Part shown: positions 30,671 through 55,399 of the stretch, in pieces
Layout of the letters: the number at the start of each line of letters is the position of its first letter
Position numbering within the stretch: the stretch's first letter is position 1
Source of the DNA: Armatimonadota bacterium
GTDB lineage: Bacteria > Armatimonadota > Fimbriimonadia > Fimbriimonadales > GBS-DC
Reading direction: 5' to 3'
Assembly (NCBI GenBank): GCA_037445735.1
Contig: JBBIJY010000010.1
Span: forward strand, 34,600 to 98,599
Length of the DNA stretch: 64,000 nucleotides
Made by a program: the position numbers and the translations under genes
Notes under the pieces: model-generated
The model's database searches: none
What the model saw: only the letters and a program-made list of their open reading frames with translations
Told to the model about the DNA's origin: nothing

Positions 30671-30752
30671 GCCCGGGTGGCGGAATGGCAGACGCGGGGG
30701 ACTTAAAATCCTCTGGGGATAACCCGTGCGGGTTCGAGTCCCGCCCCGGGCA
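30671..30752 (+). tRNA. tRNA-Leu(UAA)
   Basis: GCCCGGG acceptor stem, GGCAGAC D-loop, CT-TAA-AA anticodon loop, long variable arm, GGTTCGAGTCC; CCA not encoded. Confidence 0.95.
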
Positions 30753-30826
30753 CAACTTATTGCGCTTCTCCTGCCCCACTGCCCCTGTATCTTGTGATTC
30801 TGCAGGCGCAAGACAGGAGGCAGAGA

Positions 30827-53974: not shown

Positions 53975-54751
53975 TTAATTCGACGCTCTCTCCCGCGATT
54001 CCTGCTTTGTTTGACCTGCTGGTTGGTCAGGCGGGGCGATTCGGAGCAGGGCGTCGCGCTCGTCGGGGGTCAGCTCGCGCCATGCGCCAGGCGGAAGGTC
54101 TTCTGTCAGGCGCAGGGGTCCGAAGGCGATGCGTACCAGGCGTTGCACGGGGTGTCCGACGGCGGCGCACATGCGTTTGACCTGGCGCTTGCGTCCCTCG
54201 TGAATGGTGATTTCCAGCAGGCTCTGCTGGCGTCCGCGTTTGAGCAATCGCACCTGTGCAGGCGCGGTTTTGCCCTCTTCCAGCATGACGCCCTCGCGCA
54301 GCCGACGCAACGCCGATTCGTCCGGTGCGCCCTTCACCCACACGCGATAGGTTTTGGGTACCTTGTAGCGCGGGTGCAGGAGGCGGTTCGCCAGCTCGCC
54401 GTCGTTGGTCAGCAGCAGCAAGCCTTCGGCGTCGGCGTCCAGTCGCCCCACAGGGAAGACAGGTGTTTTTAAGCCCCTGAGCAGTTCCATCACTGTGCGG
54501 GGTGCATGGGGGTCTTTGCGCGCGGTGACATAGCCAGCGGGCTTGTGAAGCAGAATGTAGAGCGGGGCGGGCGGAGGCGGCAGCGGCTTGCCATCGATGG
54601 TAATCTGGTCTTTTTCGGGGTCGATCTGCATGCCCAGCGTGGCGCGTTGCCCGTTCACCTGCACGCGCCCCTGCTGGATCAGCTGCTCGCAGGCGCGACG
54701 CGAGCCAGCGCCGCATCGCGCCATCCACTTCTGCAGGCGAATCGCTGTCAT
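53975..54751 (-). CDS. rluB: rRNA pseudouridine synthase (RluB/RsuA family)
   Basis: RLQKWMA..SRR S4 domain, HKPAG, PVGRLD, EGRKRQVKRM. Confidence 0.9.
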   Translation of the reverse strand: MTAIRLQKWMARCGAGSRRACEQLIQQGRVQVNGQRATLGMQIDPEKDQITIDGKPLPPPPAPLYILLHKPAGYVTARKDPHAPRTVMELLRGLKTPVFPVGRLDADAEGLLLLTNDGELANRLLHPRYKVPKTYRVWVKGAPDESALRRLREGVMLEEGKTAPAQVRLLKRGRQQSLLEITIHEGRKRQVKRMCAAVGHPVQRLVRIAFGPLRLTEDLPPGAWRELTPDERDALLRIAPPDQPAGQTKQESRERASN

Positions 54752-54766
54752 TAAATAAAAAAAATC

Positions 54767-55202
54767 TGGCTCCTGGGGCAGGATTCGAACCTGCAACCTG
54801 GTGGTTACGAGATCCCCTGATCTTTCGATCAGGCTCGGACTATCTCTTCACCCGCCCTCATGCGAGGGGTAGGGTGCCGGGCGCTTTCAGGGCTTTATTG
54901 GTGGAGGTCCTCAGCCCTTAGTCTCTGCACGTTCCTGCCTACACGAGCCTCCTTCGGCAGGCTTCGCTCAGGGTTCCCATTCGGGAGGATGGGTCTCCCG
55001 GGCAGGGTTCCCTGAATTCACCCGGTTTTTCAGCCCGTCTTTCGACGGGCAGCTGCATACCGGCATGGATCTCTCCATGACAGTTTCCGACGCTTCCGCA
55101 CCGCCCCTATAAGAGAGGCGTACGGTCAGTGTAAGCGCTCCTGTCTCCCATCGATCCATGCGGCGCTCACAGCCACCCGCTCTACCGTTGAGCTACCCAG
55201 GA
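54767..55202 (-). tRNA. tRNA-Asn(GUU), intron-split (exon 1 55202-55169, exon 2 54807-54767)
   Basis: Joined exons TCCTGGGTAGCTCAACGGTAGAGCGGGTGGCTGT|TAACCACCAGGTTGCAGGTTCGAATCCTGCCCCAGGAGCCA give a 75-nt cloverleaf with encoded CCA. Confidence 0.95.
54808..55168 (-). ncRNA. Group I self-splicing intron (361 nt)
   Basis: Exon ends in U, intron ends in G; P AATTCAGGGAA, Q AACCCTGAGC, R GCAGAGACTA, S AAGAGATAGTCC; P3 CCGGGTG/CGCCCGG; P2 and P9 GAAA tetraloops. Confidence 0.93.
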
Positions 55203-55211
55203 ACCGCCCTT

Positions 55212-55241
55212 AATATACCACATTCCGGGCCCTTTTGTCAA
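55212..55241 (-). promoter_or_regulatory. Sigma70-type promoter of the tRNA-Asn gene
   Basis: TTGACA-N18-TATATT on the minus strand, 9 nt before the tRNA 5' end. Confidence 0.75.
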
Positions 55242-55252
55242 GGGGTGTGGGG

Positions 55253-55369
55253 GATGTTCGGAAAATTCAACCAGAGGAACGGCTGCCCCCTCACCGTGAC
55301 CCTCTCCCCAGCGGGGAGAGAAAAATTAAGCCCCTCCCCCTTTGGGGGAGAGGGTACGGGTGAGGGGGC
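55253..55369. repeat. Second copy of the MITE-like/palindromic repeat unit
   Basis: gatgttcggaaaattcaaccagaggaa..ccccctcacc..gggagagggtacgggtgagggggcttc closely matches 49364-49490. Confidence 0.75.
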
Positions 55370-55399
55370 TTCGTGTGGGCGATTGGTGGGTCCAATTGT

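Follow-up and report, generated by a model that had tools for sequence, protein, structure and literature searches.

A group I intron with an apparent HNH endonuclease relic interrupts the anticodon of tRNA-Asn(GUU) in an Armatimonadota bacterium

How can a tRNA-Asn gene be used when its anticodon is broken in two, what breaks it, and how did the break arise? These questions are raised by a gene on the minus strand of a 64,000-nucleotide (64-kb) stretch of contig JBBIJY010000010.1 from an Armatimonadota bacterium; the whole of this stretch is referred to here as the window. Altogether, our analysis makes it very probable that a functional group I intron has been inserted into the single tRNA-Asn(GUU) gene, as a horizontally acquired member of its family that has lost its endonuclease and is immobile while still splicing itself.

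The identity of the interrupted gene and of the insert can be read directly from their anatomy (Table 1). First, when the two exons are joined in script, ARAGORN calls a 75-nt tRNA-Asn(gtt) with a full cloverleaf, and in intron mode it reports i(35,361) for the genomic gene, i.e., a break between U35 and U36. The gene coordinates, the 361-nt insert and the 75-nt tRNA-Asn proposed in a first-pass annotation of this DNA are exact. The last 6 nt of the 5' exon, GGCUGU, are the exon strand of P1, the 3' exon begins with UAA, and a T-run follows the encoded CCA. Second, the Rfam model RF00028 (Intron_gpI) has a match of 73.7 bits (E 7.8e-17; gathering score 50 bits) at minus-strand positions 54816-55123, covering model positions 1-253 of 253. 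This match is one of only two Rfam matches in the window and the sole RF00028 match in the 2.78-Mb assembly. The covariance model that had been suggested as a check thus aligns the core over its full length and above the cut-off, and, together with the covarying core described below, it upholds the earlier description of a group I intron at 35/36 that has P1, ends in G and contains the P, Q, R and S elements (P4 and P7). Third, the 5' exon is 100% identical to the uninterrupted tRNA-Asn gene of the congeners G002 and G003, and the 3' exon is 100% identical to that of G001-G003. The promoter-like site upstream, which is a consensus match only, has 11/12 hexamer matches, compares with 0.3 sites expected in shuffles (1 observed) and ends 10 nt from the tRNA 5' end.

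The gene is easily overlooked. As had been anticipated, it is missed by default ARAGORN and also by the Rfam tRNA model, and a genome in which standard tRNA finders skip such a gene would wrongly look as if it had no tRNA-Asn. Genome-wide ARAGORN in intron mode returned 34 split-gene calls; all but the Asn call, the only one that coincides with an RF00028 match, were taken as ghosts. The earlier supposition that this is the only tRNA-Asn gene agrees with our copy count: no second tRNA-Asn was found among the 44 tRNAs detected in the 99.2%-complete, 2.78-Mb, 59-contig assembly, in which tRNA-His, tRNA-Ile(GAU), tRNA-Ala(UGC) and tRNA-Lys(CUU) were likewise undetected, and relatives have a single tRNA-Asn gene at the corresponding locus. 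Because no other tRNA-Asn was found in this near-complete genome, splicing of the split precursor is presumably needed by the cell. Since the genome contains a tgt gene and G34 and U35 of the precursor are predicted to be paired in P1, we may fairly infer that queuosine insertion would have to come after splicing.

Table 1. Coordinates in the window of the split tRNA-Asn gene, its intron and the structural elements of the ribozyme
Feature	Position	Strand	Remarks
Promoter-like site of the tRNA gene	55212-55241	minus	TTGACA, 18-nt spacer, TG-extended TATATT
tRNA-Asn 5' exon, 34 nt	55202-55169	minus	Acceptor, D arm, 5' anticodon stem, C32 U33 G34 U35; ends CUGU
Group I intron, 361 nt	55168-54808	minus	RF00028 73.7 bits; ARAGORN i(35,361); precisely absent in congener G002
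L1 insert, intron 1-112	55057-55168	minus	Apparent HNH homing-endonuclease ORF relic; predicted long P1-extension hairpin
Internal guide sequence GCAGCU (P1 3' strand)	55056-55051	minus	Intron 113-118; G, C, A, G invariant in 29/29
P2 hairpin, GAAA loop	55033-55050	minus	In the family alignment, each of the 7 pairs varies on both sides
P3 5' strand	55019-55025	minus	99.5% of cells paired; 4/7 pairs with compensatory changes
P4 and P5/P5a (P, Q elements)	54968-55015	minus	P4 is 55015-55010 with 54973-54968, enclosing P5/P5a (55007-54976); 93.9% of cells paired; 6/9 pairs compensatory
P6/P6a	54930-54966	minus	P6 pair C-G in 17, G-C in 12; P6a 6/6 pairs covary, 95.1% of cells paired
P7 5' strand GAGACUA (R element)	54919-54925	minus	Bulged A; 6 pairs invariant in 29/29
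Extra hairpin between P7 and P3', at the P7.1/P7.2 position	54889-54918	minus	30 nt; conserved loop GAGGA...CCAAUAA
P3 3' strand	54877-54883	minus	Pair counts on the family alignment
P8	54849-54876	minus	Proximal helix: 4/5 pairs covary, 93.8% of cells pair
P7 3' strand UAGUCC (S element)	54837-54842	minus	Invariant
P9.0 and P9	54809-54836	minus	P9.0 GAG 54836-54834 with CUC 54811-54809; P9 hairpin 54833-54816, GAAA loop
Terminal G (omega G)	54808	minus	G before UAA in all 41 listed tRNA-Asn introns and the 361-nt copy
tRNA-Asn 3' exon, 41 nt	54807-54767	minus	U36 A37 A38, 3' anticodon stem, variable loop, T arm, acceptor, encoded CCA

Conservation and covariation across related introns both support the predicted ribozyme structure. 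We aligned the 361-nt intron and 28 others from the same tRNA site with MAFFT. Standard pairs occupy 89.9% of the pair cells of these 29 sequences, compared with 70.3% in shuffles (0/500 reach the observed value) and 34-44% when partners are slid by 1-3 columns; the structure was derived from the 361-nt intron itself and the sequences are related, both of which favour the observed figures, including against the slid controls. Changes on both sides of the pair are seen in 54/75 pairs. The covarying helices are P2, P3, P4, P5, P6, P6a, P8, P9 (6/7 pairs, with 92.5% of cells paired) and P9.0 (3/3 pairs), while P7 and the four splice-site-proximal pairs of P1 are invariant. In P1, the first G of the guide sequence pairs with U35 (U-1) as a U.G wobble, which is present in 29/29 sequences; the pairing of GGCUGU with GCAGCU put forward at first pass is thereby corroborated, the U.G and the next three pairs being unchanged in every aligned member. 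The 361-nt copy departs from the family at 1/77 columns that are ≥90% conserved, other members doing so at 0-5 columns, and the single departure replaces a G.U pair in P4 by G-C. Judged by these columns, the core looks undamaged.

The family has one element that the Rfam consensus does not hold. Relative to that consensus, the extra hairpin between P7 and P3' is a 33-nt insertion; it is conserved in relatives, some of which have two hairpins there. Covariation is seen in its stem, although no more than 57-75% of the cells there pair in the MAFFT alignment. In subgroup IA, the interval between P7 and P3' is the position of P7.1/P7.2, and subgroup IC3 has a compact core without peripheral helices in that interval. 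Elements such as P2, P7.1 and P7.2 are among those by which group I classes are set, according to the part of Hausner et al. 2014 (PMC3984707) consulted.

What, then, is the long 5' part of the intron? The distance from the 5' splice site to the guide sequence is 112 nt here and ~6 nt in short-L1 relatives. ORF-bearing relatives have introns of 544-590 nt with an ORF of 103-173 codons in L1, and the L1 gene of these longer members encodes an HNH homing endonuclease of ~115 aa; the guide sequence, P2, P3 and P4 double as coding sequence for its final ~27 residues. When five intact relative ORFs were compared with the Pfam HNH profile (PF01844, cut-off 21.4 bits), only L085 scored above the cut-off (23.0 bits), L113 and L069 reached 21.1 and 17.7 bits, and L056 and L084 gave no match. 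Comparison of the relatives' ORF proteins with the 361-nt intron by tblastn recovers three pieces of such a gene. Codons 1-14 lie at 55151-55110. The frame then changes, with codons 14-23 at 55113-55084. The third piece, codons 88-114 and thus the C-terminal 27 residues, lies at 55085-55005 with E 1.5e-10 to L069 (in a one-sequence database). In between, ~64 codons or ~192 nt (codons 24-87) are absent, and 361 + ~192 gives 553 nt, in line with most ORF-bearing relatives, which measure 544-570 nt. The N-terminal frame of the relic is also interrupted by a stop, and the 361-nt intron has no ORF for a complete endonuclease. The decay of the ORF is a direct observation: with ~64 codons gone, the reading frame shifted and a stop in place, the endonuclease gene of this copy is dead. 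The first-pass annotation had overlooked that this long 5' part of the intron is a dead endonuclease gene. As a separate matter, we considered whether the 112 nt could be an inserted repeat or MITE and rejected this idea, since the stretch can be aligned, codon for codon, to the HNH ORFs of related introns.

The new point of this case is that the 112-nt stretch is, by its alignment and predicted fold, an HNH gene relic that would form a hairpin closing P1. The P1 domain (55174-55049) folds with a predicted energy of -56.2 kcal/mol (z -3.27), and 1/200 shuffles is as stable. In the predicted fold, the sequence around the start codon is paired to that encoding the NCH..H motif, which places the splice site next to the guide sequence. 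A similar pairing is suggested for other long-L1 introns of the family: the duplex energy between the first 30 nt of the intron and the 30 nt before the guide is >2 sd below that of shuffles in 20/28 and >1 sd below in 25/28, the shuffles being mononucleotide and the 28 introns related and thus not independent tests. Because the surviving pieces of the ORF are those that pair to close P1, the decay of the ORF appears to have been shaped by RNA structure. We advance more tentatively, as a proposal that is somewhat more likely to fail than to hold, that RNA folding and endonuclease expression would be coupled through a single helix that closes the P1 loop and hides the start codon, and that decay would spare both partners of this helix as a clamp for the ribozyme. 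The 361-nt copy would then be a minimal natural clamp on a GC-rich ribozyme whose extra P7.1-like element would distinguish the family from the classical IC3 tRNA introns. In the part of Hausner et al. 2014 (PMC3984707) consulted, ORFs that reach into core sequences are described as being under tight control.

Does the intron splice itself? We infer from these features that the 361-nt intron is capable of guanosine-dependent self-splicing. Alternatively, the relic in L1 might burden P1, such that the intron is removed in vivo without efficient self-splicing and needs a host protein of the chaperone or maturase-like kind, or high temperature. The 112 nt between splice site and guide, where short relatives have ~6 nt, could indeed slow folding, and P10 is weak or absent by eye. 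However, the relic is predicted to fold into precisely the stable P1-closing hairpin described above, relatives with 300-nt ORFs in L1 are common, so that a long L1 is tolerated in the family, and the core is fully conserved. We therefore regard dependence on such help as unlikely and efficient self-splicing as the preferred reading.

The distribution of the intron bears on how it came to be in this gene. Among the 60 nearest relatives, no match to the intron part was found in any genome, while both exons match, and the tRNA-Asn gene is uninterrupted in 19/19 same-family loci that were fetched and called by ARAGORN. The congener G002 has an exact empty site, where positions 1541 and 1542 of locus L004 correspond to window positions 54807 and 55169. 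The flanks are native, being 87-95% identical to those of congeners (87-89% around the G002 empty site). Nine of 28 family relatives do have RF00028 matches that exceed the cut-off, but elsewhere: the 5 loci fetched were all placed in LSU rRNA, with no tRNA in any of them, by blastn against an LSU rRNA stretch and by ARAGORN. By BLAST, an intron at the tRNA-Asn site is present in 2/401 Armatimonadota genomes including the present one (400-genome sample). The other copy in the phylum, in genome G281, is 276 nt long, occupies the same tRNA-Asn site downstream of a 5S rRNA gene, and is identical (L048 = L189) to the intron of a record with Abditibacteriales in its title. A quick maximum-likelihood tree was built from 67 intron cores, eleven family introns lacking the extraction anchor being excluded. 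In it, the 361-nt copy is placed apart from this other Armatimonadota copy and with a group from Binatia and Myxococcota (SH-aLRT 98, branch 0.32). The long branch makes this placement less sure.

Because same-family genomes are uninterrupted and one congener has an exact empty site, the simplest reading of these sequences is that the intron was gained horizontally, from an unsampled donor, after the split from the congeners, and that its endonuclease then decayed. Alternatively, the intron may have arrived already without its ORF. The scans revealed no near-identical donor intron among genome representatives (best 76% among the matches listed) or metagenome contigs (best 82% over 234 nt), and since the scans of both collections need exact pattern matches, closer relatives may exist. 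A quite different history, in which the intron is ancestral and was precisely lost from all sampled relatives, is very unlikely in our estimation. The heavily decayed ORF and the long branch suggest some age, a second genome of the phylum has an intron at the same site, and precise loss is known for group I introns. Against this stand the many independent precise losses that would be required, given 19/19 uninterrupted family loci and 0/60 relatives with a match, and the position of the second copy in the phylum, which is not the sister of the 361-nt copy in the tree.

A further alternative, in which the split gene would be a non-functional pseudogene or a chimera of the assembly while a working tRNA-Asn sits in unassembled sequence, is hardly credible: the assembly is in 59 contigs, lacks several expected tRNAs and has a high-copy repeat that breaks contigs ~130 nt upstream, but 54500-55363 is covered, across both junctions and with 0 differences, in another assembly made from the probable source reads, the exons are identical to the genes of congeners and the flanks native, the core is off consensus at a single conserved column, and relatives make do with one tRNA-Asn gene at this locus. 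Because this independent assembly crosses both junctions unchanged, an assembly artefact is unlikely. No intron-less allele or alternative joint was found in the contigs of three runs, contigs being prone to drop rare variants. Among sequencing runs examined for positions 54700-55300, the sole match was the probable source DNA run, which bears the label subsurface metagenome; no RNA run matched.

Related introns elsewhere are plentiful. The intron is not of a new kind but belongs to a family that is common in many bacteria. A loose pattern composed of P7, P7', the terminal G plus UAA, and the T arm matched at least 120 stretches in a collection of species representatives. Among the matches listed, ARAGORN reports tRNA-Asn(gtt) and an intron ≥100 nt long at 40/80 loci, and 40/40 of these have CUGU before the intron and a terminal G followed by UAA at its end. 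A pattern for the sub-clade matched 45 stretches; of 43 additional loci, 36 were called as tRNA-Asn with an intron, 4 were called differently and 3 were uncalled by ARAGORN. At least 76 further species-representative loci (40 + 36) therefore share the insertion between CUGU and UAA with a terminal G. In metagenome contigs, the sub-clade pattern matched 109 stretches, and in viral contigs the loose pattern matched 10, with a split tRNA-Asn in 4. Family members have in common the guide GCAGC, the core, a GNRA loop on each of P2 and P9, and the additional P7-P3' element. The core of the 361-nt intron is 68-82% identical to those of family members; among the matches listed from genome representatives, the best core identity is 76%, to L076 of Binatia and L190 of Acetothermia, and blastn of the 361-nt intron to L076 gives E 3e-54.

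Hosts among the matches listed include Patescibacteria, Cyanobacteria, Acidobacteriota, Nitrospirota, Binatia, Bacillota, Elusimicrobiota, proteobacteria and others. The argument for novelty made at first pass, that Asn introns are reported mainly for Patescibacteria, is not supported by this comparison, as by record titles ~13/40 of the tRNA-Asn loci among the matches listed are from Patescibacteria. Within Armatimonadota the intron is rare at BLAST sensitivity; the same insertion is widespread well outside Patescibacteria.

Williams 2020 (bioRxiv, 10.1101/2020.01.27.920355) counts 21 tRNA settings, comprising four classical and 17 new ones. The classical bacterial settings are Leu(UAA) at 34/35, fMet at 33/34, Ile(CAU) at 36/37 and Arg(CCU) at 36/37, all of them IC3 (10.1101/2020.01.27.920355), and the four classical tRNAs named in the first-pass annotation are consistent with that text. 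In the Williams nomenclature, the tRNA-Asn 35/36 setting would be "Asn.4Ug". "Asn" occurs 0 times in the running text of that source, the settings being named in its Table 1. That table of settings aside, no account of a tRNA-Asn group I intron was found in the literature searched, nor was a biochemical study of the tRNA-Asn intron family. Asn has 0 occurrences in the consulted part of Hausner et al. 2014 (PMC3984707), whose reference list includes a homing endonuclease of tRNA-fMet introns that is specific for the tRNA anticodon region. From the parts consulted, PMC5733544 deals with short inserts in other tRNAs and is not relevant to the tRNA-Asn intron, and PMC13168695 does not mention tetraloops or subgroups.

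Compared with these known systems, the 361-nt intron is both typical and distinct. Like the classical tRNA introns, it is small, interrupts the anticodon loop, forms P1 from the anticodon stem-loop, and has U-1.G and omega G, and the tRNA-Asn family as a whole shares with them a sporadic distribution that points to lateral transfer. However, the tRNA-Asn family resides in another tRNA and at another position, has the conserved P7-P3' hairpin that is lacking in the Rfam consensus, and has as its ORF an HNH gene in L1 that overlaps core helices. Within the tRNA-Asn 35/36 family, the 361-nt copy has the same insertion point, guide, core, GNRA loops and P7-P3' element as other members; it differs from them in host phylum and in its 112-nt HNH relic, where other members have an intact ORF (544-590 nt) or a clean L1 of ~6 nt. 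The homing cycle that Goddard and Burt reportedly set out in 1999, passing through invasion, endonuclease decay and intron loss, offers a likeness: the family is sporadic and ORF-bearing, and the 361-nt copy has a decayed ORF and is found in one species of the genus only. It also offers a difference in that the retained pieces of the ORF are exactly those that would pair to close P1.

We suggest that transcription of the split gene starts at a promoter of its own. Once the precursor is made, the last six nucleotides of the 5' exon, GGCUGU, would pair with the GCAGCU that lies 112 nt further downstream, giving P1 with the U.G wobble at its splice-site end; the 112 nt in between would form a hairpin that juxtaposes the two strands of P1. 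The P3-P9 core would then bind guanosine and cut after U35, and the terminal G would subsequently direct ligation of the exons. The product would be the 75-nt tRNA, whose anticodon loop would only then be open to modification and decoding. In the suggested history, the intron was gained horizontally after this lineage parted from its congeners, and its endonuclease would have been lost by a deletion of ~64 codons, a frameshift and a stop, leaving an immobile, self-splicing passenger.

What sets this intron apart is the exact empty site in a congener together with an HNH relic that seems to have been shaped by structure. With the congener's empty site, a gain that can be dated and a dead endonuclease gene, the locus would provide a clean natural case of the late homing cycle. 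The intron also extends the host range of a very widespread family of tRNA-Asn introns to Armatimonadota.

The tRNA-Asn(GUU) gene of the window lies next to a repeat, and synteny with the congeners is lost between ~55265 and 55377, immediately 5′ of the gene. This interval contains a short G-rich palindromic repeat, which overlaps the terminator-like hairpin of the upstream gene and is present in ∼220 copies on 42 of the 59 contigs of the genome. At this repeat, the depth of the read contigs rises from 16 to 448-1076 and contigs end there.

Features at the window and at fetched loci (L048, tRNA-Asn intron locus of G281, another Armatimonadota genome)
Feature	Location	Remark
Short G-rich palindromic repeat	window 55343-55372; wider region 55300-55383	
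tRNA-Leu(UAA) gene	window 30671-30753	uninterrupted
LSU rRNA, 3′ part	L048:1-1199 (G281)	577 model positions spread over 1199 nt
tRNA-Thr with intron	L060, L064, L065, L068 and other loose-pattern loci	called by ARAGORN
Split tRNA-Asn(gtt)	L222, L228, L229, L231	on viral contigs

The classical host gene of bacterial group I introns, tRNA-Leu(UAA) (Williams 2020, 10.1101/2020.01.27.920355), is also present in the window (see table). tRNA-His, tRNA-Ile(GAU), tRNA-Ala(UGC) and tRNA-Lys(CUU) were not found by ARAGORN in the whole assembly, with or without intron mode. The rRNA operon of this genome seems to be unassembled, and the tRNA-Ile and tRNA-Ala genes are probably located in the missing operon.

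Two sets of observations concern insertions in rRNA genes. First, 9 of 28 same-family relatives have Rfam group I intron matches above the cut-off, often several per 3 kb. Because all five of the group I intron loci fetched from this family (L217-L221, from G015, G005, G006, G016 and G012) match LSU rRNA, the 23S genes of these bacteria commonly hold group I introns. Second, in L048, where a 5S gene is followed directly downstream by the split tRNA-Asn gene, the extended spread of the LSU rRNA match together with a gap from position 166 to 790 in the aligned relatives suggests that the 23S gene carries an insertion of ∼620 nt, which is possibly another intron.

Beyond tRNA-Asn, the loose pattern (P7, P7′, terminal G plus UAA, and T arm) recovered tRNA-Thr genes with UGU, CGU or GGU anticodons and introns of 200-590 nt at 30 of the 80 loci among the matches listed. 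Within those matches, the introns of these genes, mostly from Patescibacteria, look like a candidate sister set of group I introns. Among the viral contigs matching the same pattern, 4 of 10 have a tRNA-Asn(gtt) gene interrupted by an intron of 218-243 nt. A 2014 review places all phage group I introns known by then within protein-coding genes (Hausner et al. 2014, PMC3984707). We suggest that phage tRNA genes could be vehicles of the tRNA-Asn 35/36 intron family.
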